A DNA stretch of 64,000 bases from Marsupella aquatica (GCA_973895155.1 OZ316892.1:10458283-10522282), one strand, 5' to 3'; shown: positions 31,506 through 64,000, numbered from the stretch's first letter. Notes: generated by a model not told the origin, from the sequence alone. Program-made: numbers and translations.

Positions 31506-31551
31506 CATTTCTTAAGCCGTGAGATATGAAGTTAGAAAGGAAGCATAGGTA

Positions 31552-33125: not shown

Positions 33126-34494
33126 GATGGCAAGAGGATCCCGAGGCAGAGTTCGTACCATCTAATGATGAAGCCGAAGCCCTATCAACCTTCTCAGAAG
33201 AGGATTTAGATCTTGATTGCTACCGGGTCTCTACTCGATCTACCAGAAGGAAGGAAAGGTGGGATGGGCTGGCCAAAAATAAAGGGAAGGTTATGGAGGA
33301 AAAGATCGACTCTTTGTCAACGGAAGGAGAAGGGAGGGCTCCGGCAATACAGGTAAGCCATGAGCCCACCAGTGAACCCAATCCTTCACAAGATAGCGAC
33401 TTCAATCGAGATCATCCTAAGTTGTTCTACCCCTCTGTTACGGCTAGTGTTAAGGAACAACTGAGAGAATTAGAAACGTTGGAGGCAATAATAATAATAC
33501 TTCATATATTACAATTTGTATTGAGTGATAATGCTTAATGCTGCCGGGAATGCTGCAATCTTTATATATGTAATCAAGTATGTAACTGGAGAGTTTTTTT
33601 GAAGACCAAGTTACCACTGGTCATGTATGTATATAACCGCTCTATAAAGGAGATGAAAATGGTAAGTCTTTATACATCTAAAGACTGATATTGAATCAGC
33701 TAACCCTGCAGCTAACCTAAGACAATACAAACCTAAGACTCCTGCCCACTGTCATGCCTTCCAATGCTGGTCTGCTTCATAAGTGAATAGTCACTTATGT
33801 GTACAGGCCATTCTGCTTGCCAAAAAATATGATTGTAAAAATGGGAAGGGACAATTGCAGGCAAATCATATGATTTTCAAATAGAGATCACACTCCATAG
33901 CCCCTCCACACCTGCCTCTACTTCAGGAATCACAACATCTATGATTCCTAAAGTAACCACAACCTCCAGATCTCTCTTTAGCTATCTCCTTGTTGCTCCA
34001 CTCTTCTTTGCTGTAATCAGGGCTGCCTTTCCCCTGTGCCTTCCTTGACTTTGGAACTCTGGAATAAACCACAACAGCTGCTGCAGTTGTCAGACCTCCA
34101 GTACTAGGTCTGCTTCTCCTCCTGCTCAGTCTAGAGCATTTCTTCATCACTGTTGTCCCCACCTTAGTCATCTCGAAGTCTCCAATACACCTGATCCACA
34201 AATGGACCAACACCATGAATGAGTATTATATTGAATACAACCAGATCTACAAGGTTTACAGATTACATAACATCAGAATACGCTTAGGATGTTTTCAAAT
34301 CTTGCTACCTTCACTCCTCTGGAGAATGTGTAACCCCGGTGTGTAACTGATGAATGATAAACATCAGGCATGGAGTGTACCTGCCCCAAATACAGGTCAT
34401 CAGTCTATGTTGTTCTTTACAAAATTGTCGAGGGCAGTCACATCATCTGGAGGCAACTTAAAAATAGTTGGATAGAGAGGATCCACTGTAAAAC

Positions 34495-37400
34495 TCACAG
34501 TTGATATGACAAGTCCAAGTCAATGGTCTGTGGATCACACATATTATAAGCAAATTTGTTCCTACTAGACCCAACCGGTGTAAACCAATTGAACACTACT
34601 TGACATGCAGCTTCGGAACTAGGTCTATCAAGTAGATCCAAAGGTTCTCTAGATCTGCAAACACTGTTACCATACTTTCGGTGGATGCTTTGCACCCTGC
34701 CAATCCACCAAACATACTTTGGCCCAGATGCAGAACACACTACTACCGGATCTCCTCTTGGCTTCTTTGGATTGGTCACATTTTGTTTTGATTTCCTTCC
34801 ACCTGCTTTCCCTTTGGATGCTTTTGCTACAGCCTCTGAGTTTCGAGTTGCCCTGACCTCATGTTGAGTTTCATCAAGGAAGAAAACACCACAGTCAGTG
34901 CCCATTGTCATGAACATAGTTGGTACACCCTCTCTATAGTTGGGTTTGTCCACTAAATTATTGAAGTACACACTCTGTTTCACACGAGTCAATCGGTCCT
35001 TACTCAAGTGGGGGTTTCCAATCAGCTGGCTAACCAATGTACTTTTGTAGATTTGTCGCTCTTGAAAACACACAGTTGGCTTCACTTGCTTAATTGGTGC
35101 ACCATACAACAAGTCTGAATTCATGATATTCATTGTTGCAGACAATTTGGAGGCAGCTTCCTCTACATGAGTGTCTACGTAACGGACAGACATCCCAGGG
35201 AAGGAACTCTCAGTCTCAGTCTCAGCGCCAGCTACAATCCCCAGGGTGGTAACAATAGGTGAAGCTTCCAAAATCATTGTATCAGTCTCAATGATAGTTT
35301 GAGGTTGGGCTTCACCATTCAAAGCAGGTCACACATCTCGAATGTCCAAAGTATCTCGTACATCTACAAGTGTATCCACATTGATGTCACACCATCCACC
35401 AGACTTCACCCCTTTTGACTCAACTTTCCACGGTGAGTTCCACCATAGCTTATCCTTGCAAGATGTTGAAGGATTCATTTCCAGCTCAGTTGCAGCACAT
35501 TGTGCCAAACTTAATCCCTCCTGCAATGCAACCACGATCGCTGCATTTGTCTCTATCCCTGTATAATCTGTCTGATCTGGACAGACATGAACTGCCTCTG
35601 AATCTAATTGAAGATCCATCCAAATGTTCAAATGCTTTTTATGGCTCTTTCCAGCACCCATCAATCCCTCTGATACATCCATTGCAGCCAATCTGTTAAG
35701 ATTAGTGGCGCACTCCACTAATTCTGACAAGTCATAGCTTCGCTCACGACCGTTCATGCCCCTACTTTTGAGAAGAATTGCTCACACGCATCTGAGCCAG
35801 TCAACTCTAGAGGCACTGGAAGATGCTTGAAGTGGTCTCGGAATTGGATTATCAACAGAACTATAAAATGGACTGACATTTGAACATCGAGAAAGGTTTG
35901 CATAGGGATACAGTTCCGCATGAAAGTAATTGGTTGTGTATTCCCCCCTACAGTATGGTTCCCATGGAAGCACCATAGGCGCCACACTCTGAAGAAGAAA
36001 CCCACCTTCCCACAAAGTACAACCCTCTCCCGTAGAGTGAGCCGAGGGTTCATGAATATATCCAGATAATCTCCACATATACAAACAAACACCTCAATTC
36101 CAAGTGCGAGCTCCACCCTTGCATCCTTCCGCAGACGCAACATCCTCATCGTAGAACCCACCTTACGACTACAAATCCTTTGTGCACTAGCCCAATTCTG
36201 CCTATCATTTCGTGTTACATCATCATGGTTCAGCCCATGAAGGTCATGGTCATATAAACCTAACAGGAGTCTCAGATGACTCAGGTTGGCCACTTGAGTC
36301 CCTAGTTTCAATATCCGAGCTAAAGAATCCAATGGGTTCACTAAGTTCTTCCCATTGTGGATATAGTCTTGGTCATGTAGCCCAATAGCGTGGGTCAATG
36401 GCCCATCACCTATCATAGAGTGGCTCAATTGCCAGCCTTCCCACCCAAGGCTAAATCTTGGCCCTGCCTTCCGACAGCCAGTATAGTCCTCCAACATTAA
36501 CTTCCTCCTACGTGCATCACCATCACTTGCATGGCCGAGTAAAGGCCCCACACTCTCCAGACAATGAGTGTTCCACAATGACTCCAGGATATCCCACTGC
36601 TCTCTAACCCAAGGAGCTTTAAATCTATTACATGTACCTGTAGCTAGTATAAGCAACCGTGGGAACCCCTCTGCAAGGGGATTGACTACTATACAACGAG
36701 CCATCTGCCCTACCACATTGTTGTCAAAAGCATCAACGATGATGTGGAAGCCAAGTTCTCCTTCGCCCACTTCTATCTCCCACCCAACAAGGCATACATG
36801 CCCTGTTTGGGTGACGCAAAACCCAATCATGGTGTCATGTTTTGGCAGCCACCTGCAAGAAACCAAAACTGAGTTCTTGGTTTCCAGATGGAGCCTACAT
36901 AATAGTTGAAACAAAGATAAAGGTGAAACTAGGATCCAACACCATGACATGACTAATATCATGCGTGAGGGCCTGAAGTACAACATCATGCATGAGGGCC
37001 TGAAGAAAGTACCTTACTGTTTTTTTGACAGTGGTCTCATCTTCTGCCAAATAACAGGGAACTGGCCCTTTGATGTTGAGTCTCTCTTTCAGTTTGGAGT
37101 ACACTTGAGAGACAAACATAAATTGTTCAGCATGGATTCCTGCTCGGAATACTGCCATCCCTCTTCTGTCCCGTTGAAGGGTGTTTATGCTTGGCCCTAT
37201 CCCATTACTTGCAAGGCAGTCAACAACATGTCGACCACCATGCAAGAAGAGTGTTTGGCAGAGAAGCTTTGTTCCAGCCTTGAACCTATATCCCTCCTTT
37301 GTCGTATTCAAGTTTGAAGCTATATCAAATAACATATCCCACAATGCACCTCTCCCACCAAATGCACCCTTCCTGTGCGCAAGGACTATGGACTGACAAA

Positions 37401-39143
37401 CCTTAAGGATAGATTCCTTATTGGGGCCTTGATAGTCAAGACAAACTTCCTTTATACTAGGGATCCGAGACTTCAGCATCAACAGTTTGTGACTTAGATA
37501 TTTCTGCAACTTCCTCTCTCTCAAAATTCGGTTTCTGTATACTTTAGCTTGGTTTTGGACCTCAGGAATTGTGAGGCAACCTAGCCGCCTGCCCTTGCCA
37601 GTCCCTCTCTCTCCTCTTTTCTCATAGGCCTTGACCTCTCTTGCTACCCGAAGTCTGAAGTCCTTCATGTTCTTAATGGAATAACACTTGAAACACGTCA
37701 AATCATCAAACCCACCCCCCCAACTGTGACATTCGACTACATTCTTTATGCCTGGAAAGGCCCTTGATCTCACAAGCTTCTTCACTATACATAGAGAACA
37801 CCTCTGCCATTACTAGGGGCGCTGCATACCACGCACCACCCACTTTCACCTAGTCATGTAGGTGACTTTTGATAGGCCTAAGTTCTGACCCTACTTCTAT
37901 CTCATCCCGCCACAGACCCCAACACAACAATGACAAATTATCAAAAGTACCTCTATCATCATCTCGTGCTGACATCCTTGACGAGCTACTTGATGCACCT
38001 GCAGTCGAGGTGCGAGTCAAGAACCCCTGAATTTTTCTTTGTTTCTTATCCCTCCCGTCCACAGTACGGGGTCTGCCAGGGTGCCCTGACAAAACTGGCT
38101 CGTTTCTTGTAGGCCTCTGACTTTTGGCCACATAATCAAGATGGATCAAGCCAGTACAATGGCTTGTCAGATTAGCCTCCAAGTTTTGTTGTTTGGGTAC
38201 CAAAGTCAAATGGTGAAGACAAAAATTGCAGAACAGTTTCAAAGTCTGGAACTCCACTGGTTCCTTATGGACATCCCCCTCGACTGTAAACGTCTCGCGA
38301 CCAACTGTCTGCAACTCGTTGATCTTTGCTACAATCTTCAAATGCTCTTCAAGTATGGCTCTATCAGTCAAAGTATTTGACTGCGCCCTCCTTGAAATCT
38401 CCACAGGCCCAACTTTCTCACCCCTGTTCCTAGCCACCCGAGCTGCATGCTTTGATGATCGCAAATGCGAATTTTTGAAGTTGGTAAATGCATTATTGAT
38501 GGATGATTTATCCATCAATGTACCTTTTGCTAGCCCTTCCACCCGCTTGTCACACTCACAACACTCGATATGCCCCCAGGGCATGTTGTCTTTGTCCCAA
38601 GTTCTCACTTTCCACTTGTGGTGAGCACATTTAATGGATTCCATGTGAGTCTTCAACTTATCCGCAGATGCTTTCCATACTGCCTTTAAAGTATTACTCA
38701 TAAGAGTGGACATGAACGTGACTTGTTGTTCAGGCTCTGGCAAGGGGCAACCAGAGTGTGGATCAGCTTCCACTGGAGGCTCCCATTCATGGGAACATCG
38801 ACATCATCACTCTCTGGCAATGAAAGGCCATTGGAAGCATTGCTACTCCCGAGGGCTTGCCCTGCGCCTCCAAGGCATTTTTGGGAATGATAACAATCTT
38901 TCCCCCACAATCCTCCAAAAGATTGCAGATCTCCCATTTCTCCGGCATCCGAGTGGCGAGATTGACATCAATAAAGTGGAAGTCAAAATCGAGTAGTGCC
39001 TCCAACTTCAGTCGGGCATCAGCATACGATTCCCCTGCTTTGTAACTATATGACGATATAGGTTTTCTTTCCCCACCTTCTTTGTCTACTTGAAACAAAG
39101 TCGCAGGCGACATTCTCTCACCCTTTACTGACAACCTATCCAC
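34495..39143 (-). pseudogene. P-element/THAP9-like DDE transposase with N-terminal C2H2-like zinc fingers, frameshifted; one clear intron at 36853-37012
   Basis: Ordered motifs GPSINTL, YLAEDETTV(R/W)LPKHDTMIG, HASDGD, QDYIHNGKNLVNPL, RQNWASAQRICS and SDACEQFFSKVG parallel the P-superfamily D, D, DxxH and E motifs. The GT-AG splice restores the frame. Confidence 0.7.
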
Positions 39144-44152: not shown

Positions 44153-45983
44153 CAGGGGATAACTCGCCATCTCACCATAGTTTATACTCCGCAGCAAAAT
44201 AGTGTCGCTGAGAGGCTCAATCAAATACTATTGGAGCGATCACGGAGTATGCTGAGCCAATCAGGTTTACCATAGGAATTTTGGGCAGAAGCTGTCAATA
44301 CTGCAGCTTATTTGGTAAATCTTTCTCCTTCTAGTGCCATCAATTTCAAAACGCCGTTTGAAATGCGTTATAAGTGGCAAGCAGACTATCATGGCTTGGT
44401 AGTTTTTGGAAGTGATGCATATGCTCTCACACCAAAGCAGAATAGGACCAAGTTGGATACTATGTCCAAGAAATGTATTTTTCTTGGGTATCAGAGTGGT
44501 GTGAAGGCCTATAGGCTATGAGATCCTATTGCGTGTAAGCTCGTTGTCAGTAGGGATGTTTCCTTCAATGAATCCAGATTATTGAAGGAGGAGGAGAATA
44601 CTCAAGTCTCCCGTACTCACAAAGGAAAATCTCCTATCCCGGATCTCGTTGAGGGGGAGATTGATCATGAAGTGCATGATCAAAGAGAAGGAGATGCTCC
44701 AAGCATGGAGCTAGTTCCTGTGCCAGAGGAACAAGAGGAATTTATTGATGCCGGTGAGCAGCAAGTGGATGCTGCTGAGCTTCAAATCGTACCAGTAGAT
44801 GCAATTCAACCAGAGTCATCGGCTAGAAGAATATCTGGTCGTATTGTACGTGCTCCACCTAGGTATGGACAATGGGTTGATTCATCTCAACTGCAAGAGG
44901 ACGATTTTACAACTGATGATGAGAGTGATACGTTAATTTTGGAAGAAGAGGAACCTTCTTCATTTCATGAGGCAAGTGCTTCAAAGGAGAAGCAGAAATG
45001 GACTGTAGCAATGCAAACGGAGATGCAATCGCTGAAGGACAACAAAACTTGGGAGCTTGTTAAGCTGCCTAAGGGTCAGCAAGTGGTGGGCAGTAAGTGG
45101 ATATACAAGCTAAAGGATCAGTCTACGAGAGGTGGATCAAAGGTCTACAAGGCTAGGTTGGTAGCCAAGGGATTCACACAGGAAAAAGGTGTGGATTACA
45201 AAGAGGTCTTCTCACCAGTTGCTAAGTACTCAACAATACGGCTATTGTGTGTGCTTGTTGTAATGTTTGGTCTGTTGCTAGATCAGATGGATGTTGTCAT
45301 AGCTTTCCTCTATGGCACCTTGGAAGAGGTGGTTTTCATGAGACAGCCGCTAGGTTTTGTGAAGAGAGGACAGGAGGAACTGGTTTACAGATTGCTAAAA
45401 TCCTTGTATGGGTTGAAGCAGTCACCAAGATAGTGGAACAAGCGGTTTGACGATTGGATTCGATCACAAGGTTTTCACAGGAGTGTGTTTGACCCTTGTG
45501 TATATTTGAAACCGGTGAAGAATGTTGTCTTTGGGTTCATTGTTTTAGTACTTTATGTGGATGACGTGCTTATTGCGGCCAAGGATAGGTCTGAAATTGT
45601 TAAGCTTAAGGCACTACTTAGTGCAAAGTTTCAGATGAAGGACCTAGGGCCAGATAAGAGGATTTTGGGTATGGAGATCACTAGGGACTTGGAGGCTGGT
45701 AAGCTATGGTTGACACAGAGCAGTTATGTGAGGAAGGTAATTGCTAGGTTCAACATGGAGAATAGTAAGCCAATAATACCCCTTTGGCTGCATACTTCAA
45801 ATTGTCATCAGATTTTTGTCCCACAGATGTGACAGAGAAGGGGCTGATGTCAAAAGTTCCTTATGATAAGGCAGTGGGAAGTCTCATGTATTTGATGACT
45901 TGCACTAGACCTGATCTTGTCATGGCTATGGGCAAGGTGAGCAGGTACATGTCAAATCCAGGGAAGGTACACTGGGAAGCAAT
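44153..45983 (+). pseudogene. Copia pol, part 1: integrase C-terminal half and RT
   Basis: TPQQNSVAER, KCIFLGY, AMQTEMQSL..NKTWELV, YKARLVAKGFTQ, QMDV..AFL, KSLYGLKQSPR, LYVDD. Several stops and frameshifts. Confidence 0.95.
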
Positions 45984-46313
45984 TGTCACACCATTCTAGG
46001 TAGTGTTAGAGTGTATCATACTATCTAGCTCCGTATGTTTGGTATGTGTGCTATATGAGCCGATAAGGTTCCGTCAGGTTTGTGTGAGAGGGTACTTCTC
46101 ACTTGTGAGGCATTGAAAGGTCATCTTTCAATGTTGAGTCTTGGAGAGAAAGGAGCTTGAGTGGCTATGGTGGCTGTGAGCTCCGCTTGTGTAACGTGGA
46201 TTCCTTGAGTAGTGCAAGGTGCGTTGGCTTGACATACGTGTGTGATCGGATCGGTGCGGGATCGATGGGGTATTATTGACCGGGATCGTTGTGCCGATTG
46301 TATTGAGATTACA
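45984..46313 (+). repeat. Repeat A1 (TGTCACACC..GAGATTACA)
   Basis: Matches 54759-55086 with about 7 substitutions in 328 bp. Confidence 0.95.
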
Positions 46314-47629
46314 TTGAAAGATCGCTCGAACTCTATTGCTGTACGGACAGAGCTTCGATTGGAGGTTGTGTATTGGCGACGGTTTGTGGTAGTTCAAATC
46401 GATCGTGTTGTGTTGATTCGGATCTTATTGTTGACATTGTGTTGGAAGATCTATTCTGCCAGGGGGCTATTGTTTAAGCTTTCGACAGTTCCCGAAGGGC
46501 TCTGAGATGTGTTGATCGAAGGGCTGATCACAGCAAGGTCGACTACACCGTCCGGACCCTATCCAACAGATCTACAAACACGGGCATAGATCCCTCTGCT
46601 GTCGATCTGTCCCGAGTTGCGATCTGTGACAGTAGCGATCGGATTTGATAAGGCCGGCTGTGGCGCTGCTGTTTTGATGAAGGAAACGGAGATCAAACTT
46701 TGAATGCTGCATTTTGCGTCACTACTGTTTCCATTCAATCATGTGTATGTTGCCGTCGCCAAGCTGCGATTTTGCGTGAAGGGAACCAGCAGCCACGAAG
46801 TCGATGTTTTGTGAGGGAAATTGAGTCTGGATGTTGTGAGATCGAACTGCTGTGTTTCCGTCGGACTGCTACTGCGATCTGTAATTCTGCGAAGGGAACC
46901 GAGGGCAGAACCTGAATGTTGCCGAATCCGAAACTCGATCCGACGTAGCGAAGCGTTGCGGGCGTGAAGGGCTCACCTCGGCGTTACTCGGGATGAGGGG
47001 CGTGAGGGCGGAGCAAGAGCGGGCCAGCAAGCCAGCTTGCTGGTACGTGAGGAGTAGTTGCAAGTGCTGCCATTTTGGAGTGGCAGATTTGGTGAATAAT
47101 GACAAGTGAGAGGTCACCCATCCCAAAGCTATTCCTCCTCTCATGAGCTTAACTAGCAAGTTTCTATGTGGCGCATTGTACATGCTTCCTTCCATATTTG
47201 ATGTCCAAGGAATGAGGCCCTAGGGGTTTTATGCACTTTTGAATTCATCTAGATACTCTGTTTTAGCTAGTTTGCGATGGATTCTTGAATATTTGACGCG
47301 GGATTCTAGAGGCCTATTATGAAGGCCCTACATTGAACTATATGCACATTATTTACATGTATTTTTGATTGATTGGTGTGGAGAGTTGTGGTAAATCCTC
47401 TTCTTGTTGTTGGATCCTCTCCACACATGCTTCCTGTTTATGCGCCATGTTAGTTTGGCGTGGGCGCTTGATTCTATAGGAGTGATCCGGGTTTGCAACC
47501 GGACATTCTAGTTGTGCTACGTATTTCTCTCCTGGTGATGTTGGAGTGATGCTCAACACACCATGGTGAGTGCTTGTGTTGTTGACAGGGACAGATTGCC
47601 CTTAGGGTTAGCCTATAGATTAGGTTAGG

Positions 47630-49269
47630 TTGGTCACCACGGATTCTTTTGGCGCTGCTGGGTTACCCGATGGACGACGGACCGGTTTCACTCGGAGTGG
47701 GGTGCAGTTTCGGCCAGCGACAGTGGTAGCAATCAACAGCACAGCTTCAGACAGTGATTCTGACGAGGACTCTGTGAGCAGTTCTCCTCGTCATCAGGTG
47801 ATTGCACCATTGTTGTGGGATATGGAAGAGATGTACGGGGCTACAAAGGGCCCACGACGATACTCTGGTGCAGTTGGCACGATTGATCTGGATGACTTCA
47901 TCCAGGAGTTTGATACATGGTGCGATATGCAGACATTGCGTAACGCCACGTTGTTTACCCCTTTCATGGCATGAAAGGGATTATTTCAGCATTTGGAGGG
48001 GCCACCCATGGATGACTACCATGAGTTTTGGAAGGCTCATTTGGTTGAGATTGAGGCATGGAGGCAGCATTGGTCGCCTAATTACGTGTCCATCACCTAT
48101 GGCACTAGTGCGGCTGCCCAACCCATTGCCACAACTGCTGCTGCTTCTTCTAGCAGCACTAGCTAGAGTGACACGCCATCCACCAGCAGCACTCTAGCAG
48201 CATCCACCGCTACTCCTGCCGGTGTGATTATGACAGGAACTGGAGTTGCGCCAGCATTTAACCCTGTGGTGGAATTCTTTGAGGTACTGAAGCAAAACTA
48301 TCAGGGTGTGAGAACTGATAAGTTGAAGGGTCTCCAGGAGTTCCAGCGCAAGACTGGAGAGAGTCTACGTGAGGCATACACTCGTATGCGCAGATTGATC
48401 ACTGTCACCAAGGGAGTGACAGAGGCTCAGGCAGTCCAGTTTTGGTATGCAATTTTGGATAGAGAATTGCGACGTAGAGTGAGAGATGTCACTCTGCTTA
48501 GGGATACAGATCCCATATTAGCAGTTGTTTTTACTCTTTCTGAGCGTATTGAGCTCAATATGGTGAATGAGAAGGTGGTGACTTCCGGATTTGCCAAGGA
48601 AGCACCAAAGGCTGCATCTACATCTACACCACAGCCTACTGCATGGAAGAGCCAGAGGGAGAAGCCTACTGCACGAGAGTCTACCAGCCAGAGACCTGTG
48701 CCCTCTTATGCTGGACAGCAGTCAGGATGTTGGACCTGTGGTGGGGATCATGCACAGAGATATTGCCCAGATCATAGAGGATCAGGAGGAGCAGCAACAC
48801 CTGATCAGCGACAGTGTGATCATTGTGGAGCTCCTGGACACACCAAGGATAGGTGTTTCTCACTCCATCCTGAGTTACGGAGAGGAGGATCCCGTACACA
48901 TGATCAGGGAAGAGGAGGAGGAGGTAGACATGGTGGATGTGGTCGTGGCATGCCACATGCAGGGATCAGGGAGGTGACGCTGCCCGTGCTGTAACCATAG
49001 ATCCAAAGGATGCTAAGATTGCTCAATTGGAGCAACAGCTAGCTGCCATGGCTAGTTCCCAGGTGAGACCTACTTCTGGTGATGGGGCATCTACATCCTA
49101 TGGACCTTCCACATCCCATGGTCCTTCCACATCTTATGGAGCTGATGGAGAACTTGCCACCATGGGATTCATGTGTGGCACTGCACATATTGATGCATCA
49201 GCAGCTTTGAGACGTGGGGCAGCCAAAGCTCTTAAGCCCCGAGGAGCAGTAGTGGAGCTAGATCCATAG
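47630..49269 (+). pseudogene. Gypsy gag with two zinc knuckles
   Basis: YSGAVGTIDLDDFIQEFDTW, QRKTGESLREAYTRM, CWTCGGDHAQRYC and CDHCGAPGHTKDRC. Stop at 47972 and a frameshift near 48970. Confidence 0.85.
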
Positions 49270-49314
49270 AGGGGGGATGCATGTCGGCAGACAAAGCTTC
49301 CTCAGTCTTTTACA

Positions 49315-50484
49315 TTGTCAGAGACAGTTCAAACTGCCTCTATGAACCCGGTTCGGACAAACCCTAGCATGGGTAAGTTGGTAGAATCAGGTAGTGATGC
49401 AGCAGGGATGACAGGTACCCTGCTGGGGGTGGCTACTACCATGGTACGCACCCCATTATTTTCAGCGACAGACATGCTAAACTTGGGAGTTGGTCCTGCA
49501 GAAGTGTTCAGATTGGCAGCTACACTCTGTAAGGACACTCCACTGGTTGCTTCCCATGCAGAAGCAGCTTGCAGTGTTGAAGCAGTGAAGACCATGCCAC
49601 CTACTACTACTAGTGAGACATGGCATGCAGTAACAGTGAGGTTGGTGCATTTACCAGCATGCCCTGCATTTGAGAGGACTAGGTTTAAACCTAGCGTTGT
49701 GTCATTGGATAATTGGAGTGGTATCTTCCGATTAGTTGGGCCTTCTGGAGCAGTATACCAGCCAGAGAGAGTGTTACTGGATACTGGTGCTCAGCCCTTG
49801 ATGTTGAGGAAGTCTGCCATACGTGGATTGGGATTGCGTCCAGAGGATTTGGAGGATTGTCCCTTTCCCATTCAGACTTCATTGGGGGGACCTACACCTA
49901 CACAGCATATCACCAGAAGACCACTTGATTTGAGAATTCAGGAAGGTCATACCACAGATAGCTCACAGATACAGGCGCGAGCTATTCTGACTAAGGCAGA
50001 TTCATATGATGTGTTGGTGGGATGTACAGTGCTCTACCCCATGGGATTTATTCTTGATTTTTGGGAGGAATCAGTGTCATATAGACCTGATTGGCAGTCA
50101 GGAGATGCTCGATTGAGAAAATTGCCAGTGAGATTTAGTGGACCTCTGGGAGGCCCTAAATCCACACCATTGTCTTTGGCAGTATTCAGTGGTGTAATTG
50201 CTGGACCCGATGATTTGATTGAGGGTAATGCGCATGCAGCCGATGTTCCACCATTGGAGGAGTCTCATGAGGAGCACATCATGCAAGGATTACCTGTTGG
50301 CAGTGTTGTGCCACCAGTGTGGGGCACTGCACAGGCCTTGCCACAGGTAGCAGCACGATTGGTACATGATGCATGGTGTCATGCTTTTACACCACAGTCA
50401 GGAGCAGAGCAGTCTCTTGCAGATGGACCTGTGACTCTTTCACCATTGGATACCACTCTTATTGCTTGGCAATATCCACCGTAG
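49315..50484 (+). pseudogene. Gypsy aspartic protease region
   Basis: VLLDTGAQ active-site motif (~49771) and a downstream YDVLVG motif. Confidence 0.85.
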
Positions 50485-51260
50485 GGTATCTGTTTGTTGG
50501 ATCTTTTTGGTGGGATTAGCACTGAATTGGCTGCTGTTCTTCAGGCAAGAATTCTTGTGCATCGTTATTTGTATGTGGAGACAGATGAGACAGCACGGAG
50601 GGTCTCATTGCGACATGTGGCTATGTTGGTGGATAGATATCCATAGTTGCTACCAGTGGATGTTGTTCGTGGTTATCAGCATGCACTACCTGCTGATATT
50701 TCATTGCTGGGGGCGGATCATCTGCATCGTGTTGGCCCCATTGATTTGGTGATTGCTGGTTGGCCATGTCAGGGCCAATCTAGAGCTGGCGTTGGGCATG
50801 GACTTCATGATCCACGCTCTGCATTGTTTTGGGAGATGTTACGGGTGCTACGTCATCTCCAGCTACATCAGACACAGTCTCCAGCATACATTTTGGAGAA
50901 TGTGCCATTGTTAGGTGATGATTGTAGTCGGATTGTTGCCAGTGTTCATCAGGTGAGGTCTTGGATTGGACCTGCTGTGTTATTGGATGCTGCACGTGTG
51001 GGTTCTCGTGCACATCGTCCACGCTTGTGGTGGACTAATTTGATCCCATGTGAGGTGTTGAAGCATGCATTTGACAGCATTCCACGCTCACCAGCCTTAG
51101 TGGTGGATGATATTTTGGATCCAGGGCGTCGTGCACAGGGTGTGACCCAACCTGATAGACCTCCATTGGCAATGGTCAATGTAGTTGGGTGCCCACGTTG
51201 TGCATTACCCACTCTTGTAAGCCACTCTACTTCATATGCATTCAGACCACAACTAGGGGC
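50485..51260 (+). pseudogene. C5 cytosine DNA methyltransferase domain (DNMT3/DRM-like) within gypsy pol
   Basis: In frame with the protease: LLDLFGGIST (motif I), YVETD (II), DLVIAGWPCQGQS (IV, catalytic PC at 50764-50769), ILENV (VI), RAHRPRLWWTN (VIII). TAG stops at 50482 and 50644. Confidence 0.9.
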
Positions 51261-51394
51261 GAGCAGACAGTCCATGGACCTATGGCAGGATTGGCCAGGC
51301 TGGACAGATTGTTGAGCAGGAAGGGACTGCTCAATCTACTGCTAAATAGCAATCATCGGCTATCTCTTCTACCCTACAAAGAGATATTAGGGAT

Positions 51395-54300
51395 TTGGTG
51401 GAGAGTTGGGAACCACAGCTTGGCTCTAAGTTAACAGGGGAGGAGAGACGTCGCATGCATCGATTCCTGAAGAGTTATTGGAATTGTTTTGCATTCAGCA
51501 TGAAGGATTTGGGGACATTGAAGGGCCCTGGTATTCAGATTGAATTGGCTAGTGATGCGCCAATCTTTCGTAGACCATACCGCTATAGTGACATGGAGAG
51601 AGCTCTGATTCAAAGTAGAACTCAAGATTTGTTGGAGGCTGGATTGGTGGAGATTTCATATGGGGAGTATGCATCTGCCACAGTGATGCCAGCCAAGAAG
51701 GATGTGCATGGCAATTACACAGATAGGCGCATGTGTGGTGATTACAGACCTATTAATCGCCAGACAAAATCTGATCGATATGCCATGCCCACACCTGAGG
51801 AGATCTTTGATGTTGTGGGGCATGCAAAGGTTTTCAGTTCATTGGATCTGAGGGCAGGATACCATCAGCTTCCAATTAGGCATGCTAACAGGTCCAAGAC
51901 AGCATTCTGGGGGATTGATTCTTATGGGAAAGATCGTTTGTATCAATGGTTATTCTTACCATCCAGAGAGTCATGGATCGAATCCTTGCAGGTTTGGATT
52001 TTGTCAGATGTTATATTGATGATATTTTTGTCTATTCTTCTACTGTGGAAGAACATCAGCAGCACTTGCAGATTGTGTTGGAGAGATTGAGAGCACATGG
52101 GTTGAAGCTCCATCCTGGCAAGTGTAAGTTCTTCCAAGACCAGATTGAGTATTTGGGCCACACTATATACCCAGGGGGATTGGGTGTACAGCAGACTAAA
52201 GTGGAGGCCATACACAGATTCCTCATCCTACTGATGTGAGCAGAGTTCGTGCATTCTTGGGATTGGCGAGCTACTATAGGAGGTATGTTAAAGGATTTAG
52301 CCAGCTTGCTAAACCTTTAACGATACTCACTAAGTTGGATCAGGAATGGACTTGGGGTGATGACCAAGAGCATGCCTTTCAGGAGTTGAAGCAAAGGTTG
52401 GCATCATCCCCTATTTTGAGAAGACCCATTTCAGGCAGACCATTTCAGCTACACACTGATTGGAGTGGAGTAGGATTTGGAGCAGTGCTAACTCAGAAGG
52501 ATGATGAGGGGAATGAGTTTGTTGTGGCTTATGCCAGTAGATCAAACAATGCAGCAGAGGCTAAGTATAGCTCTTATGAGGGAGAGTGTTTGGCAGCAGT
52601 GTGGGCTGTTGCACACTTTCGTTGCTACTTGTTTGGTAACCCCTTTACCTTGATCATTGATCATCAGCCTCTTAAGTGGTTAATGGAGTCTGACAAACTT
52701 ACAGGGAAGCTTGCACGATGGGCATTGTTGTTACAGGAGTATGATTTCCAGGTGGTGCATAGGCCTGGAAAAGTGAACTTGGATGCAGATGGATTAAGCC
52801 GCAATCCATGTACTAGTCAGCAAGATGAGACTAGAGCTAGATGGCATGATGAGTCAGATAAGGAGATGGTGCCAGGATGGCATGCATCTGCCTTTCTTTG
52901 TTGGGTGCCAGCATACAGTGGATCTGTGGACTCTACCTCATTGGATGGAGTGGATGATGAGTCTTCAGATGTGGATGTTGGTGAGGTAACTTCTGGACAA
53001 CAAGATATTCACAATGATGTGAGAGTGTTGGAATATTTGCGCAGTGGTTCTATTGTTGGCAGTGTTGATGCCAAGGAACGTGACAGGGTTCTACAGAGAG
53101 CCAAGAGATTTCGATGGGAGGGAAACCATCTTTTGAGAGTACTGCATGATGGTAGGATGTTGGTGGTACCAAAACCATCACAACGAGTACATTTGGTGCG
53201 ACATGCGCATGAGGAGTTGGGTCACTTTGGTGTGAAGTGCACTTACAGCTTGCTACAGACACAGTATTGGTGGCATGGTATGCACACTCATGTCCAGCAG
53301 TTGATAGCTAAGTGTGTGGTATGTGATAGAGTGAGAACATCATTTAATGCTCCCACTCCCTAGTTGCACCCGTTGCCGATCATGGGTTTGGGATATCGTT
53401 GGAGTTTGGATTTTGCTGGTCCATTACCTCTTACCCAATGTCATAATCGGTATGTTTTGGTCATGGTGGAGCACTTCTCCAAGTGGATTGAGCTAGTGGC
53501 GTTGCCAGATAAAGCCAGTGGAGGAGTTGCTGCTACATTTTTGGATCGTGTACTCAGTCATTTTGGAGCACCAGCTGAGGTGTTGACTGATCAGGGAACT
53601 GAGTTCCGTGGAGAGTTTGAGAGTTTGTGTGAACAAGCTCTGATTGATCATCGTACTACCTCTCGTGATCATCCTGAGGCAGATGGATTAGCTGAGAGAG
53701 TTGTGCAAACTGTGAAGAGAGGATTGCGTAAGTATGGCTTGCAGGTTGGTCATCTGGGAGATTGGGATCTCTAGCTACCTTGGTTAGCTATGGGCTACCG
53801 TTTCAGTCGGCAAGCATCACTTGCATCCTTCTCACCTTACTTTTTGCTCTATGGTAGAGAGCCAAATTTGCCAGCAGCTATTCGTCGTGATGCTACATCA
53901 GTTGTGAACTTAGATGATCCTGATGTTTGGGTCAAGGTGTGTTCAGAGAGAGCACAGGTATTTCAGCGAGTGATGCCCATGGCTTTTGACAACCTTGCCA
54001 TTACCCAACATCGTGATACTTTGAGGTATGCCACTATTCGTGGAGGAGGTTACCGTGCAAGCATTCGACGATTTCATCCTGGTGATTATGTTTATTTGCA
54101 GCAGACAGCACCCACCACACTTGATGTGACCGCAGGCCGGACAATCTTACGTGTGCGTGAAGTGTTGCCTTCTGGTGTCCTAATATTGGAGGGACGCGAT
54201 GGTATGGTTTGGAAGGATCATGTGCGCAACTGTGCACCATGTCACCTTTCCAACATTGATGGTACAGTAGATCCAAGCTTGGCACATGTTCGTGCTGGCT

Positions 54301-54446
54301 TGAAATGTATGTTGTGTGGATCTACTCAGGGAGCAGCTACTATGTTGATTTGTGATCAGTGTTCTAGAGGATGGCACATGTCATGTTTGACACCACCATT
54401 GCAGGTGATTACTAGTGGATCATGGTTGTGTCCTCAGTGTCGGTGA
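51395..54446 (+). pseudogene. Gypsy RT, RNase H, integrase and C-terminal PHD finger
   Basis: RMCGDYRPIN, LDLRAGYHQ, YIDD (52012), TDWS..YEGE..DHQPL..DADGLSR, HEELGH..CVVC, SLDF / TDQG / AERV, then a C4-H-C3 PHD at 54306-54440. Small deletion near 51960; stops at 53361 and 53772. Confidence 0.95.
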
Positions 54447-54610
54447 AGCCGACTAGTTATCATTTGTGTTCTGTTGGCAGATATAGATTGCAGGTAGGTG
54501 ATCGATGGGGCTCACTTGCACCCGACCTCTTGATCTTCACACCTAAAAAGGTGTATATCAACCTTGTAGAACTCATGGCTAGCTAGAGTTAGGGGACCTT
54601 ACTCCCAGCT

Positions 54611-54620
54611 AGGGGGGCGA
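54611..54620 (+). other. Polypurine tract of the gypsy element
   Basis: AGGGGGGCGA, one base before the TG that starts repeat B1. Confidence 0.75.
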
Positions 54621-54621
54621 T

Positions 54622-55223
54622 TGTGGGGTTGGACATGTGTGGACATGAGTTCCACTTGTATTCCATTCTCTTGTGTTTGTGATGTGGCAATGTGACTATG
54701 TCTGGATGTATGTGACAAGCGATGTATGTTGTGTAGTGATGTGTATGTGCACGACAGCTGTCACACCATTCTAGGTAGTGTTAGAGTGTATCGTACTATC
54801 TAGATCCGTATGTTTGGTATGTGTGTTATATGAGCCGATAAGGTTCCGTCAGGTTTGTGTGAGAGGGTACTTCTCACTTGTGAGGCATTGAAAGGTCATC
54901 TTTCAATGTTGAGCCTTGGAGAGAGAGGAGCTTGAGTGGCTATGGTGGCTGTGAGCTCCGCTTGTGTAACGTGGATTCCTTGAGTAGTGCAAGGTGCGTT
55001 GGCTTGACATACGTGTGTGATCGGATCGGTGCGGGATCGATGGGATATTGTTGACCGGGATCGTTGTGCCGATTGTATTGAGATTATTGTGGGTTTTGGA
55101 CATGTGTGGACATGAGTTCCACTTGTATTCCATTCTCTTGTGTTTGTGATGTGGCAGTGTGACTATGTTTGGATGTATGTGACAAGCGATGTATGTTGTG
55201 TAGCGATATGTATGCGCACGACA
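54622..55223 (+). repeat. Right-hand repeat block B1 (54622-54756), GC, A2 (54759-55086), B2 (55088-55223)
   Basis: B1 and B2 are ~135-bp near-identical copies ending GCACGACA; A2 matches A1. Confidence 0.95.
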
Positions 55224-55780
55224 CAATGAAGTGGATTATCAGGTATTTGAAGGGTACCATGGATCATGGTCTTTTATTTGATGCAAATGCAAAGAATGCG
55301 AGATCATTGATTGGCTATGTAGATTCTGACTATGGACAAGATCTAGACCGAAGGAGATCAACAACAGGGTACGTGTTCACACTTGGCGGTGGATGCATAA
55401 GTTGGAGGTCTACTTTGCAGAAGTGTATTGCTTAGTCTACTATAGAAGCGGAGTATGTTGCAGCAGCGGAAGCAGCGAAGGAAGCGATTTGGTTGGATAG
55501 ACTTATCATTGAAATGAGATTGCCACAAGGGAATGTGAAGCTCCATTGTGATAGTCAAAGTGCGCTCCACCTTGCTATGAACCAGGTGATGGACAGTAGA
55601 GTGAAGCACATAGATGTCAAGTACCATTTTATCAGGCAGACTGTGTCTGATAATTTGTTTGAGCTAGTCAAGATAGACGATAAACTCAACCCAGCTGACG
55701 CATTTACCAAAGTGATTCCTTCGGAAAGTTTCTCTAGACATCGTGATGTGCTACAGGTTTTGCAATTGCGTCACAAGTAA
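55224..55780 (+). pseudogene. Copia pol, part 2: RT end and RNase H
   Basis: MKWIIRYLKGT, YVDSDY, RRSTTGY, EAEYVA, CDSQSA, KHIDVKYHFIR, NPADAFTK. Confidence 0.95.
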
Positions 55781-55972
55781 GGGTTTTTCTTAACATTCGC
55801 TGTAATTATTGATATATGCTCTTCTTCACTCCTAGTAGTAGGCTACAGCTTAGTTTTGGTTTGCTCTAGTTAGAGAGGGGAAACCATGTTGGTTTTCGTC
55901 CAGAACTTCCCGCTGAGGAATCATATAGGTTAGCAGTATTACCCTCCCCTAGACCAGAGTCAAGGGGGAGAT

Positions 55973-56315
55973 TGTTAGGTATTTACTCAAGGTCTAGGGT
56001 TACGACATGTAACCGTAGTTAGGCTAACCATAGTCGGAGACGTGGTTAGGTTAACTAGGATGCACACTATATGCCAAGCGGTGTTTGCTTGGATAAGTGG
56101 AACTTAGGCTCATTGTTACGAAGCCACTTGAGAGATGAGGAGAGCTTACACTGTGGAGACTTGGTTTAGCCGACGGGCTTAGAGTTCAGTAAAGCTCTCT
56201 TGTGTGTTCCTGTGGACGTAGCCTGGAGGAGGTGAACCACGTATCTCTTGTGTCGACTACTTGCGCGTTGGATGTGTCATGTGCTTACCATTACGAGTGT
56301 CGTCTATGCTCAACA
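55973..56315 (+). repeat. Copia 3' LTR, preceded by PPT AAGGGGGAGA
   Basis: TGTTAGG..CTCAACA, matching the 5' LTR. Confidence 0.95.
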
Positions 56316-57837: not shown

Positions 57838-58758
57838 TATAAATATTTACATGCGGGGGAGGGGGGCTGTGAGAACTGGGAGAACTGACGGAGCTGTGAG
57901 AACTAGGGTTTGGGGTTTTTGGTGTTCCGGAGGGTGAGGCGTTCGATCTTTGTGTATTGTGTTATGTTTGTGATGATTATCGTGATAATGGCAAGGATTA
58001 CTTCGGATTAAGACGACTTTGAATGGATTTGACCATCAGGATGATGGTCCACGGACAAGCTATCTAAACTTCGCTTACTCTGACGCGCGACGGAAGCTGA
58101 CGCTGTAGATTCAAGCTTTTTCCCAAGGATTCTAACATCTGAATGACGGGAATGCATCTGGGAGCAGACAAGAAGTCCGACCGTGCTCGTGCTGTGGGCT
58201 GTTTCTCTGGGTAGGGTGAAATTGCGTCACAGTCGAAAGGAGCCGCGGGGCTAATCTCTTTGGCCTTTATGCTGAAAGCGCTTTCAACTTTACTGGCATT
58301 CAAACAACGTTACGACATCTTTGATTGGGTAGTGCGGACACTGCCACTGGTGTACTGCATTGCATGCGATCACTAGTACTGGTTTATGTTGCATATTCCC
58401 TGAGGTGCTGCTCTTGCGGCTTCTCACTTTCTGCCTCCAATTCCTGGGGTGACTCTACCATCCCTACGGCTCACTCGGTGATTCTGGCAAAATTGGCTTG
58501 CTGGTGACTCCCTAGACCTCCTTTGGGGATCTCGGTGCTGGTCTCGTGCTGGTGGACATTCTCCTTTCTGGTGACCAGGATTCCAGGTGAGATATTGTCA
58601 ACATCCTGCGCTATTAATTTAGGTCTCCCTTTCACAAAGTTCATGCATTGGTGACTGGGAATCGCCTGCTTCGTCTTTGAGGTGCGTGCTCACTGTATCC
58701 CGGGTGCTGGACTGGTGCCCCCTGCCATTTACCTTTCTTTGATTTTGTCTCGATCAAC

Positions 58759-60933
58759 TTGATATCTATGTCGATATATCGGAGGAACACTTTGGGACAC
58801 GGAGGACGCGGGGCTCTCATGGCGGGACCTGCCTTTCTACGCGACGGGGCTGCACAGAGGGATGCGGCACGGAGGGATGTGGAAGGAGGTGCTGGCCATT
58901 GGCATCATGTGGATTCTGGTGGCCCTCGCGAGCGCGAGTTTTCTGCTCCTAGCAGGGGTGGTTATGTCAGCAATTTTTCGGGACAGGATGCCCGATCCGA
59001 TTTGATAAGAAACCAATGTCCACTTGATAGGGAGGCAATCACTGCTCTTCCCACTGATCAACCATTGCAGAGTTGGTTCGGTTTGAAACCTTCTGGTGAT
59101 AATGTTGATGGATTCGCAAGATGGGAAGCTCATCGTGCCCTTGACACTGTTTCTATGGATGTTTTGGAAGGCCGTGAGCAGCCCTCCTACATTGAAACCT
59201 TTCAAGATGACATTGGTGAACGATCTGGTAGGGAAGACATGAATGTGGACGGAGTGTCTGAGCAGGATCGCAGTGATCGCAGCCATTTTCACTCAGCTGG
59301 GCCTGCTGGTCCTCCAACTTTGGGTGCAACGGGAGAGGGCGCGCAATCCTCAACTGAGGCAAGGGCGGAGGAAGCTGAGGCTTGCATTCCGCTTTTAAGA
59401 AGGATCTCAGATCTCACGATACAAAATTGGCCCTCCCAGCTTCACACTACAATTACTTGGTCCCTTGAAGAGGCGGCTGAGACTGTTCGGGGGCTATTCA
59501 ACTGCTCAATGATGTGTTATTTCACTGATCGTGCACCTATGCTTCCGACGTTTAAATTCTGGGTGGAGAAGACTTTTGTTAACGAAAGGAAGTGGCCAGT
59601 AACACAAGTGAAATTCGTGGGGAAGAGCTTCTACATGGTGGCCTTCAAAAATCCTGAGCACCGGGACCTGGCTTTGGCAGAGGCACCCTGGTTTCTGGAA
59701 CGGAAGTATGTTTTTACCTTCCCTTGGGACCCGTCCTTTGATATCATGAATGAGTCCTACACTCTCTTACCTGTTTGGATTGAAATCCCTTTTTGCGCAT
59801 TGCTATTGGAACCCTGTCGTCGGAAGCTGGCTGCTTCTCTGGGAGATATTTTGCATTATATTCAGGGCGATGATTTAAGCTCCTACCCCCATGATCGTGT
59901 TTGTATACTCTGGGACACTCAGCGGGAGGTCCCGCGCAGTGTTGAAGTCCAAATTCAGGCTGATCTCTCCATCTGGCAACCAGTCATTTTCAAAAATATA
60001 CCCTTCCACTATTTTATCTGTAATCGCAAAGGCCACTTGGCCAGGGATTGTCGATCACACGAGGAGCAGGCATAGGAGGCCCCCCTGGCCGCTCCTCCTC
60101 TTAATACTGATCAGGGTGAGGTTATCCCTGCGGAAATTGTTACTGCTGTTGACATACCTGCCCCTCTTGAGTCTGAAACCATGGCGGCTCCTTCTCCTCC
60201 CGAGGGCATCCTCGGAACTACGACTGCTGTTGAGCATGATCCTGGAGGGAGCTCTTTATTTGGCGCTGCACCGGTGCTGGCTATTGATTCCTGGCCAGTT
60301 GTGATTGCATCGGTAGTGGATGAATCTGCTGAATTGGGTCCCCAAAACCCTCTGGTTAACTCTGTTTCTATGGAGAACGAGGTTCCTAGGATTTTTCAAG
60401 ATCTACAAGCTATGAATGACGAGCCTAAGCTTCTGTTGGCAGCACCTGAGATTACTTTGATGCCGTCTAGGGAACTTGAACCCCCTTTGGCACCTTCACC
60501 TGCCGAAGGAACTCAACTGGTTGCTATTGGGGAGGGATCTGAGGAAATGGTGGACGACCCCTCTGGCTCTGAAATAAATTCTGATATGGAGCTATCCAAA
60601 TATGAGGGATTTATATCCCGCTCTGCTCAAAAGAAACACCGAGCTCGTAAACTGGCACGCAGATCCCCACCTGAAGAGAAAAGGAAGGATAAAGGCAAAA
60701 AGAAAGCCAAGAATCAACGATCCTTACTTTTCTCCCCTGATTCTACTGTGCAGGATGCTGAGGGCTGGGTGACTCCAGGACGGAAGCTGACTCGGGAGCA
60801 AAATCGCTCCAGCACTGCGCTCCCTGTCCCTGTGGTGGAGGTGCAGCCTATTGCTGAACGGGATCCCCCGCCTATCCTTATGGGTGGTGCGGTGGGGGTG
60901 GTTGGTGGGAATGCTGCCCCTCTGACCTGCTGA
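58759..60933 (+). pseudogene. L1-type LINE ORF1 (DUF4283-like plus degenerate zinc knuckle), stop at 60073
   Basis: PWFLERKYVFTFPWDPSF..LPVWIEIP and YFICNRKGHLARDC. Confidence 0.85.
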
Positions 60934-61009
60934 ATATTGAGGCATAATTTTGTCTATTTGTTGCTTCTCCTAAAGCTGCTTTGCTGGCCCCCTGGAGAAG
61001 TGGAGCGAT

Positions 61010-64000
61010 GTGACACTCCTCAATTTTGCATCATGGAATGTCTGCGGCTTATGTAATCCGGATAGAAAGCATGTGGTGTTGAAATGGGCTTCTTCAATCC
61101 GACCTCCGCTCGACGCCCTGGCTTTGCAGGAAGTAAAGGCTGATGAATTTCGATTGGATAATGCATTGAAGACCATCCTACCCGATTATCAGCATTTTTA
61201 CTCGGCCCCCGTTGACGGCAGGGGAGGCACAGCTATTTTACTGCACCCGTCACTTAAGGTACTGTCATCAGGTACGCTGGACCTGGGCAGAGCGGTTTGG
61301 GCCCAACTGGAACACGCCGAGGGAACCTTTGGGCTGATCAGTGTGTACACGCCCAACTCTCCAGGAGAACGAGCAATTCTCTGGAATGATTTGAAAAACG
61401 AATTACCTCAGGGTCGATGGGTGTTCACTGGAGATTTTAACATGACTGAGCTCCGATGTGATTCCACTGGCTTGACCCCGTTGATCCGCGGGAGGGAATT
61501 GGAATTCTGGAGGTTTTTGAAGGTTCGACTTGACTTGCAAGACGCACTCTCTATTCTTGGTCAGGTATCGGGATCCAGGTTTACCTGGCGCCGGATTCGT
61601 AACGGCATGTTGACTCAATCCCGCCTTGATAGGTTCTATTTCAGTGAGAAAGGCCAGTGGACGGAGGAACTGGTGGAACTCAAACATGATGGCACATCGG
61701 CACTATCGGACCATGACCCTGTGCTGATCTCTTTCCGCATTGCCCCCTTGCTCACGTCTGCTTCTGATCAATGACGCACTTCTTACTTCAAAGCTAACCC
61801 TGCTGTGGTGAGGAACTCTGCAAACTTGGGACTTCTGGAGGCTGCCTGGATTGGAGATGCCGCTCCCCTTGCTGAACCTCATCTGCGCTTTTCTTTGGCG
61901 TATCAGCGTCTCCGCCAATGCTACATGACGCTACAATCGTCACCACTGCCCAAGGCTGCAGAGGCTGCACTACTGCGTGACAAACTTCGACTTCTGAAGG
62001 TAACCATTATGGAGGACTACTCCACTGACAGTATCACAGAGTTTATGGATACTGAAGATAATGTACGTTCAATGGAACTTGAAGATGCTCACCACTATCG
62101 CCGGCTATCTAGGATTAAATGGTTGGGCCAAGGCGACGAACCCTCTAAGTTCTATTTCTCCACTATTAAGGCCAAACGGCTCAGAGAAAAGATGGAATAT
62201 CTTGTGGTTGATGATGGCACGGAATTAAGGGAGGAGCGACTCATTGTTGGAGAGGTACAACGTTTTTGTGCGGAGCTGTACTCACCGCCATTACTGGATG
62301 GAGAAGAATTGAGGAAGCAGAGAATAGCACGCAGGACTCTGAGTAGGAACACACATTTTGTCCCTACTGCGGCTGAGGTTAGAATGCTTGAAGAGCTGCC
62401 TTCTATACGTGAATTGCACGACACTTTGTTACTTCTTCCCAGTGACAAAGCTCCTGGTATTGATGGCATGACTGCGGAGACCTTCAGGGCTTGCTGGGAA
62501 TTCATGAAGACTGACTTTCATGACATGATCTGTGATTTCTGGAGGACAGGACATCTAGCTTTCAACATCAAAGATGGGGTTATTCGTTTTATTCCTAAGA
62601 AAACTGATAAGCGAAGACTGGGGGACTGGAGAGCATTAACCATGTTAACTATTGTGTACAAGCTCTTGGCTAAGCTGCTAGCCCTTCGTCTAAAAATGTT
62701 ACTACCTAAGCTGATCTGTCCACAACAGACAGGCTTTATCCCTGGGCGGCACATTCTGGAAAATATCTCTCTCACCTGGCTGGTTAAAGACTGGATTAAC
62801 TTCACTAGGACCCCGGCTCTTTTCTTGAAACTGGATTTTGAGAAGGCCTTTGACAGAGTGGATCACTCTTACATATGGGAAACTATGAACCTGTTAGGCC
62901 TCGGCTCACATTTAATTTTTCTAGTAAAGTCTCTGATCAGCAATGCCTACTCTAAGGCTCTCGTCAATGGCATCTGGACTGAGGATGTGAAGATGTCCAG
63001 GGGTGTGAGACAAGGCTGCCCTCTCTCACCTCTTCTCTTTGTCATATCTACACAGCCCTTGATGGATTTTCTTACAGCGGAGATTAATGCTGGTAGATTA
63101 CAGGGTTTGCAGATCTCCAGTTCTCTACACATATGTTTTAGACTTTTTGCGGATGACTTAGGGTTGTTCATCCCGGCCTCAACGGCCGCCTTTGAGCAAG
63201 CCAGGAGTGCTCTCACTTGCTACGAAGATGCCACAGGTGCTAAATTGAACTTAAACAAGTCAGTTGTTATTCCCCTTGTTGTGGAGGTGATCCCGAGCTG
63301 GCTTCTAGCTACTGGATGTCTGATTAGTGAAAGAGGAGTGGTACAGAAATATTTGGGTGCTCCCTTTGGCTTGGATCTTACTGAAGCACAGTTGCATGAC
63401 TTTTGCCTTGACCGGATTGGAGCCAGACTCTCATCTTGGTGTACCCGTTTTCTATCTTTCACTGGAAGGGTGCTGTTGATCAAACATGTTTTACTTGCCA
63501 TTCCTGTATATCACATGATGTTTCTGCGATCCTCTGCTTCTCTGGCAAAGAAGCTGATTGCACTCAGTCGTGTTTTTCTTTGGGGGATTAACAAACAGGG
63601 GGGGAAGCGAATTCCACTGGTGGCCTGGGCGAAGCTGGCACGACCTAAGGTGGATGGTGGCCTGGGATTGAAGGACTTTCGTAGTCATTCTGATGCTCTA
63701 CTAAGTAAATGGTTTACTGGGGCGCTTGATAGACCGGAATCGGAATGGGCCAGGATGTATGCGGAGAATCTAAAGCTAACTAAGTGGCGCAACTATAAGA
63801 CGGTACACAGGAACAACTACTCGATGAAGGATAAGGTCCTGCTTAGTACTCCTCGCTCATTTGGGAAGCTCTGTTATACTGGCCAACTTTGGTGTGCTTG
63901 GACCTTGGTTCGGGAGAACCTGGTCCTTTGTCCTGGCACTGCGACCATCCCCGGACACTGGGGGATTGAAGATGTTTTGCGCTGTCTATTGGATTTTTAC
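61010..64000 (+). pseudogene. L1-type LINE ORF2 (AP endonuclease plus RT), stop at 61772, runs off the window
   Basis: SWNVCGL, LQE, GDFN, SRLDRFY, SDHDP; then KAPGIDG, LDFEKAFD, GVRQGCPLSP, LFADD, KYLG. Confidence 0.93.

Follow-up and report, generated by a model that had tools for sequence, protein, structure and literature searches.

A gypsy-like retrotransposon lineage with split repeats and a candidate integrase attachment site inside its long terminal repeat

In retroviruses, linear cDNA is the accepted substrate of integration; a former proposal that integration proceeds from circles with two long terminal repeats (2-LTR circles) went unsubstantiated, and such circles are usually called dead ends (PMC1180852). 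Split direct repeats of the form A1-body-B1-A2-B2, together with a proposed circular intermediate, are described for PAT-like and Ngaro elements (PMC7192593), and the same order, A-coding-B-A-B, is given for the DIRS arrangement (PMC5890265, Fig. 1e legend). KnitGypsy-Dnmt3 from Klebsormidium nitens has repeats arranged DIRS-like and gypsy domains (de Mendoza et al. 2018, PMC5890265, Fig. 4c legend). Here, we analyzed an element in a 64,000-nucleotide stretch of Marsupella aquatica DNA (GCA_973895155.1 OZ316892.1:10458283-10522282; the whole stretch is hereafter the window). The window element is laid out as A1-body-B1-GC-A2-B2, has the ends TGTC...GACA, and is nested in the reverse transcriptase (RT) sequence of a copia element. 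The sequences of its two ends also meet inside it, where B1, GC, and A2 form the palindrome GACAGCTGTC (54753–54762), present in a single copy within the 64-kb window and a candidate for an internal attachment (att) site of the integrase.

Like KnitGypsy-Dnmt3, the window element combines gypsy domains and a cytosine methyltransferase in its polyprotein with A-coding-B-A-B repeats (PMC5890265). Because domain order is shared with the K. nitens protein KFL_009030040, to which the integrase core is 60% identical in pairwise comparison, the two elements very likely belong to the same lineage. In the main text of that study the strings “circular” and “palindrom” do not occur, and its account of KnitGypsy-Dnmt3 includes no ends, duplication, priming, mechanism, or A-body-B form (PMC5890265); a preprint names Gypsy-DNMT3, with no mechanism in the available text (10.64898/2026.05.21.726589). 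Our search, which drew largely on the text of openly available articles and preprints, found the layout in PMC5890265 only, and the palindrome, self-priming, A-body-B form, and integration route undescribed. The lineage and layout appear to have been noted once before, and the internal attachment site and the circle-based integration it implies appear to be new. A preliminary description of the window had proposed such a route, and its core idea holds with corrections; overall it is partly supported. It was silent on the methyltransferase, a plant homeodomain (PHD) finger, the commoner A-body-B form, and the KnitGypsy-Dnmt3 precedent.

The element shares with Ty3/gypsy retrotransposons a gag followed by protease-RT-RNase H-integrase, an integrase of the DDE type, a primer-binding site (PBS) behind the 5′ repeat, a polypurine tract (PPT) ahead of the 3′ repeat, and a short target duplication. 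Complete terminal LTRs with ends at the cDNA tips are what it lacks (0/38 right and 0/11 left ends in the survey of relatives below): the element is gypsy-like up to cDNA synthesis and departs at integration. Its split direct repeats are those of PAT and Ngaro, yet these encode a tyrosine recombinase. The window element instead combines a DDE integrase with a PPT, a PBS, and 4-bp duplications, and no Pfam match to a tyrosine recombinase was found among 58 scanned open reading frames (ORFs), i.e., ORFs ≥90 aa of the window element and long ORFs of its relatives L016, L018, and L063. In the chromoviruses Tf1/sushi and Tcn1, a 5′ primer is self-paired to a PBS behind the 5′ LTR (PMC6317226, 10.1101/2022.12.06.519325), a mode of priming predicted from sequence for the window element as well. 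Where these chromoviruses have a chromodomain, however, the window element has a C-terminal PHD finger, and its repeats are split, whereas theirs form ordinary LTR pairs. Phygy elements (REXdb) have a tRNA-Trp PBS and 4-bp duplications of the form NCGN, unlike the self-priming of the window lineage and its duplications CAAT, TGTT, ACTA, CATA, and TCAT.

A biochemical precedent for the presumed cut comes from the integrase of prototype foamy virus, which in vitro cleaves both strands of a palindromic 2-LTR junction behind the CA, leaving a 2-nt 5′ overhang, although its palindrome forms only upon ligation of att-bearing tips and linear DNA is its normal substrate (PMC1180852). In the window lineage, by contrast, the predicted U3 always contains the palindrome, and att sites are absent from the tips. 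Circle-forming bacterial insertion sequences of the IS3/IS30 type likewise use a DDE enzyme on a circle in which abutted ends meet at a junction with a 2–3 bp spacer; as DNA transposons they differ from the window element, and they have their junction made by the transposase itself.

Ends and layout across the lineage

To learn whether the layout recurs, we surveyed relatives among metagenome contigs, i.e., the best 80 of 414 confirmed matches. The B repeat of two families was found in 59 of the 80 loci, with integrase C-terminal region identities of ~75% (near family) and ~48% (distant family), while the other 21 loci, 12 of which were inspected by eye, had no plus-strand B match to the two reference families and were short contigs, other families, or rearranged. 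Merging duplicates by flank yielded 44 groups: 14 with B-A-B, 1 with A-B in which B1 is deleted, 23 with PPT-B-flank, 4 in which B is incomplete, 1 that stops inside A at the contig end (L039), and 1 fold-back (L001). The integrated forms were A-body-B-A-B in 15 loci and A-body-B in 23. Excluding the incomplete-B groups, L039, and L001, all 38 distinct right ends joined to flank were GACA (36) or AACA (2), followed by a mixed first base (A15/T14/C5/G4), and 10 of the 11 distinct left ends began with TGTC, the remaining one being eroded. No B was found upstream of any of the 11 left ends, i.e., the mirror form A-B-A-body-B was not seen there. Two relative families carry TGTC..GACA ends at many loci, as the preliminary description had anticipated for a dedicated pathway, and the ordinary B-GC-A copies that it had named as contrary evidence did not appear at any of these ends.

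The palindrome is conserved as well. All 16 distinct B1/A2 junctions consisted of GACAGCTGTC or C>T/G>A variants of it, and the palindrome or such a variant was also present in L016, L018, L032, and L063 downstream of a G-rich tract; altogether it recurred in six families other than that of the window element, at 48–77% integrase identity. A G-run preceded B1 in both relative families. In sequencing run X4, at least 36 contigs exited B at 54756 into dissimilar sequences (flank agreement 0.37) and at least 7 entered A at 54759. For the nine elements with both ends on one sequence, the 4-bp duplication was exact in five, matched at 3/4 positions in two, and was absent in two; a further exact duplication, ACCC, was read from two overlapping contigs (L069, L075), whose element appears internally inverted. 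In L033, the B end was joined to an inverted piece of the A repeat of its own family. Taken together, these counts show that the layout characterizes the whole lineage and that it is integrated in two forms; we are highly confident that the attachment site of its integrase is internal throughout the lineage. No age difference was found between A-body-B and A-body-B-A-B copies, in what is a weak test (p 0.85, 0.37). Viral contigs contained no relative by protein scan; a 14-nt pattern had 78 matches there, none with element proteins by tblastn, and these were treated as chance.

For the window element itself, the A-body-B-A-B layout, the CAAT duplication, and the copia RT site of the preliminary description are confirmed, as are the PPT it placed next to B1 and its pairing of a DDE integrase (PF00665) with a target duplication. 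The repeat identities are given in Table 1, and the flanks on both sides consist of copia RT sequence, with an upstream RVT_2 match. Its boundaries had to be moved: A1 ends at 46310, B1 starts at 54620, A2 spans 54759–55085, and B2 starts at 55086. Insertion-free contigs span the site in 4/4 sequencing runs (joints 45979/45981 to 55227) and are probably sister copia copies; among the contig pieces listed, none covers the whole stretch. The element family is high-copy in the runs that contain family members. Immediately behind A1, at 46311–46935, summed contig depth fell far below that of A and the body in 4/4 runs (750–8,500 vs ~200,000 in run X1), and most family members seem to carry a 5′ leader other than that of the window copy.

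Priming, cDNA ends, and the A2/B2 join

Priming looks Tf1-like, i.e., self-primed. The predicted primer inside A1 is exactly complementary over 12 nt to the site behind A1 (Table 1), a length reached in 0/500 shuffles, and across five families the sequences of the two partners differ while their complementarity is kept (near family, AGTTCTTTGAGT; distant family, AGTTTTTCTAGA(ATT); further pairs in L018 and L032). The predicted 5′ RNA fold pairs primer with PBS, but its whole-fold z-score of −1.0 is not significant; the case for self-priming rests on exact complementarity and covariation. In three of five families, a TATA box is located 29–32 nt upstream. A tRNA-type PBS and TG..CA cDNA tips were considered and set aside for self-priming.

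Self-priming would also relocate the ends of the cDNA. The LTR made by the RT is predicted to be B-GC-A with tips ATTGTGG...GAGATT, which are neither TG/CA nor conserved across families. The preliminary description had correctly seen a PBS-like site next to A1, but had assigned its first letters, ACA, to the LTR and thus arrived at an LTR of TGTGGG..ATTACA and at a terminal CA lost from the A2/B2 join; since ACA opens the priming site (46311–46322), the predicted tips are joined flush with no CA lost. Supporting this reading of the cDNA end, L001 (1166–1796) runs through PPT-B-A and exactly 12 nt of PBS. It then continues into the inverted first 180 bp of A, to an inverted att half and flank, and looks like an integrated folded-back plus-strand strong-stop product; alternatively, it may be a chimera.

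The A2/B2 join varied among 12 distant-family loci, being flush in four, shortened by 2 nt at a shared AT in four and by 1 nt in one, extended by 2 nt in one, and affected by larger deletions in two. In L055/L065, ~210 bp of A2 were deleted up to the B2 start at a 3-nt shared sequence, as expected of resection. Five contig joints ≤16 bp from the A2/B2 join, which may be diverged A variants, were left unused. Across 11 distant-family loci, the distance (transversions and indels) between B1 and B2 of the same element was 0.012, compared to 0.032 for B1-B1, 0.030 for B2-B2, and 0.031 for cross pairs, and diagnostic indels were common to the own B1/B2 pairs of L034, L046, L072, and L073. Own-pair distances, shared indels, and join variation together fit a B2 copied from B1 in each cycle and a join remade by end-joining, rather than inherited, in line with the end-to-end ligation that had been suggested for this join from the window copy.

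A candidate integration route and its alternatives

We consider it reasonably likely that the integrase cuts the internal palindrome and that A-body-B-A-B derives from a 2-LTR circle. Transcription would start inside A1, and the first ~12 nt of the RNA would pair with the site behind A1, as in Tf1. LTR-type reverse transcription would then yield linear DNA with B-GC-A at both ends, whose tips, devoid of a TG/CA signal, would not be integrase substrates and would be end-joined, flush or with small losses, into a 2-LTR circle. There, the PBS-side copy of GACA^GCTGTC would be nicked by the integrase behind the CA of either strand, creating CA-3′ ends with 2-nt 5′ overhangs, and these ends would be inserted with a 4-bp stagger and loss of the central GC. 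A-body-B would arise from 1-LTR circles or double-site cutting and, as it has no 3′ R repeat, would be a non-replicating dead end, leaving only A-body-B-A-B to propagate the lineage. More broadly, we lean slightly toward the view that, in an old LTR retrotransposon lineage extending from charophyte algae to land plants, the integrase site was relocated to U3 from the tips of the cDNA, the 2-LTR circle became the obligate precursor of every copy able to replicate again, and 1-LTR circles give rise to abundant repeat-less A-body-B copies that escape searches for LTR pairs.

Several observations weigh against this route, every step of which, the circle and the cleavage above all, is deduced from sequence. 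Since the circle would hold two identical palindromes, the mirror form A-B-A-body-B is expected at equal frequency, but 0/11 has a P of ~0.004–0.03 under equal site use; the two palindromes are thus apparently not equivalent, for which one speculative source would be that the PBS-side LTR becomes double-stranded first. The own B1 was the nearest copy of B2 in just 5–6 of 11 loci, the B1/B2 comparison in the near family (3 loci) was uninformative, and the joins of the near family (4/4) and of the window are flush and do not vary. No TATA box stands at the expected place in the window copy, and the complete elements L031 and L025 have no duplication. L018 and L032 present PPT-B-att-A-PBS and leader on flankless contigs, in which the integrated layout is not readable. 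More generally, the relatives are short-read contigs with many duplicates and perhaps few hosts, and A-body-B could stem in part from assembly collapse or later B1/B2 recombination.

An internal attachment site may also operate without a circle, although we regard this as unlikely. The PBS-side palindrome would be cut in linear cDNA, the integrase would hold both pieces and insert them jointly, and host repair of the resulting chromosomal break, bounded by the cDNA tips, would create the A2/B2 join, while cutting of both palindromes would yield A-body-B directly. Products and join variability would be identical, the commoner A-body-B form (23/38) would be explained with no circle, and L001, whose right end is an inverted A-side half, indicates that the ends need not come from one palindrome. 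However, each productive insertion would require a repaired chromosomal break, the joins are mostly flush or within 2 nt (10/12 distant, 4/4 near), and end-joined 2-LTR circles are established for retroviruses (PMC1180852).

In another alternative, two linear cDNAs would be linked head to tail, with cuts at equivalent palindromes, and B2 would derive from a second molecule. Its products would be topologically the same, and it would accommodate the modest share of loci in which B2 is closest to its own B1. It is nonetheless improbable, as own pairs share indels and are separated by less than half of the cross distance, and no tandem full element was found in the 80 loci, few of which are long enough to show one.

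Slightly less probable still is a PAT/Ngaro-like replication, in which an RNA from A1 to B2 would use the internal B1-A2 as rejoining template and the A2/B2 join would be inherited. This would match the repeat layout of PAT/Ngaro (PMC7192593, PMC5890265) and the invariant near-family join (4/4). Yet the join lies at the PBS/PPT boundaries and differs among close copies, B1 and B2 do not form separate lineages, A-body-B copies have no internal junction, and the elements carry 4-bp duplications, with no tyrosine recombinase in the ORFs scanned.

Finally, the structure at this locus, which has no long-read coverage and where the 600 bp behind A1 have ~0.3% of the summed contig depth of the body, might reflect a singular accident, faulty assembly, or a separate A-B mini-element inserted beside a truncated LTR element. 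This is very improbable given that layout and ends recur at 15 distinct loci belonging to two further families, that the layout is also described in Klebsormidium (PMC5890265), and that the whole unit sits inside one duplication.

If integration via the internal palindrome is true, this natural lineage would be a standing exception to the retroviral rule, and a defined 10-bp substrate, together with an integrase of lineage-specific active-site spacing, makes a direct test of the question feasible. Surveys restricted to elements with LTR pairs, a duplication, and TG/CA ends (PMC6317226) should overlook A-body-B copies and mis-bound A-body-B-A-B copies.

Coding content and surroundings

Table 1. 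Features of the window element, in window coordinates.
Feature	Position	Strand	Evidence or remark
Left target-site duplication, CAAT	45980–45983	+	
A1, starts with palindrome right half TGTC; predicted to comprise distal U3, R, and U5 in the LTR as defined by reverse transcription	45984–46310	+	
Predicted transcript start and self-primer ATCTTTCAATGT	46123–46134	+	Exact complement of 46311–46322
Self-priming PBS ACATTGAAAGAT, starts with ACA behind A1	46311–46322	+	
Gag-like region, CCHC knuckles; stop and frameshift	47802–48991	+	Translation, matches relatives
Aspartic protease region (LLDTGAQP)	49270–50481	+	Translation
C5 cytosine methyltransferase domain, in-frame stops	50485–51312	+	PF00145, E 7e-11
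RT, RNase H, integrase zinc finger, frameshifts	51350–53360	+	PF00078, PF17917, PF17919, PF17921
DDE integrase core and C-terminal PHD finger, in-frame stops	53364–54443	+	PF00665, PF00628
G-rich PPT, adjoins B1	54611–54619	+	
B1, predicted proximal U3, terminal GACA	54620–54756	+	94.9% to B2 over 138 nt
Palindrome GACA-GC-TGTC, candidate internal attachment site	54753–54762	.	Kept in relatives
A2	54759–55085	+	97.9% to A1 over 328 nt
A2/B2 join GAGATT/ATTGTGGG, predicted right cDNA tip flush on predicted left tip	55080–55093	+	
B2, terminal GACA = palindrome left half	55086–55223	+	94.9% to B1
Right target-site duplication, CAAT	55224–55227	+	

The window copy is decayed, with stops and frameshifts through the coding body. 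Its gag-like region had no Pfam match, and the protease-homologous region of L016 and L018 matched Asp_protease_2 below the Pfam cut-off. The methyltransferase domain is 45% identical to the Klebsormidium protein P0044, which we infer to be the element of PMC5890265. Named homologues came from Marchantia, Riccia, Calypogeia, and Klebsormidium, and the best solved-structure matches of L018 were Ty3 for the RT and prototype foamy virus for the integrase. Among 46 homologues examined (P0001–P0046), the integrase D-to-E spacer was 34 residues in 34/34 for which its motif was located, mostly with SRDHPEADGLAE; integrases usually carry YHPQ and a spacer of 35 residues.

A distant relative, L063 (1368–14223), has its methyltransferase between RNase H and integrase, a domain order also found in P0033, P0036, P0037, and P0042. 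Its palindrome, at 14205, is the same as that of the window element, and downstream of its polyprotein lies a 794-aa ORF with no Pfam match and no Atlas match >0.78.

Around the element, a 343-bp direct repeat (19145–19487 and 55962–56303, 97.4% identity) encloses ~36 kb of nested insertions and probably represents the two LTRs of the host copia. Several long ORFs that lack a Pfam match, or have a coiled-coil-type match only, lie at 22835–25183 (−), 34495–38803 (−), and 27134–33538 (+), the last region including an ORF at 31773–32951 that resembles gag and has a zinc knuckle. A LINE-like element (DUF4283, endonuclease) occupies 58681–61774.

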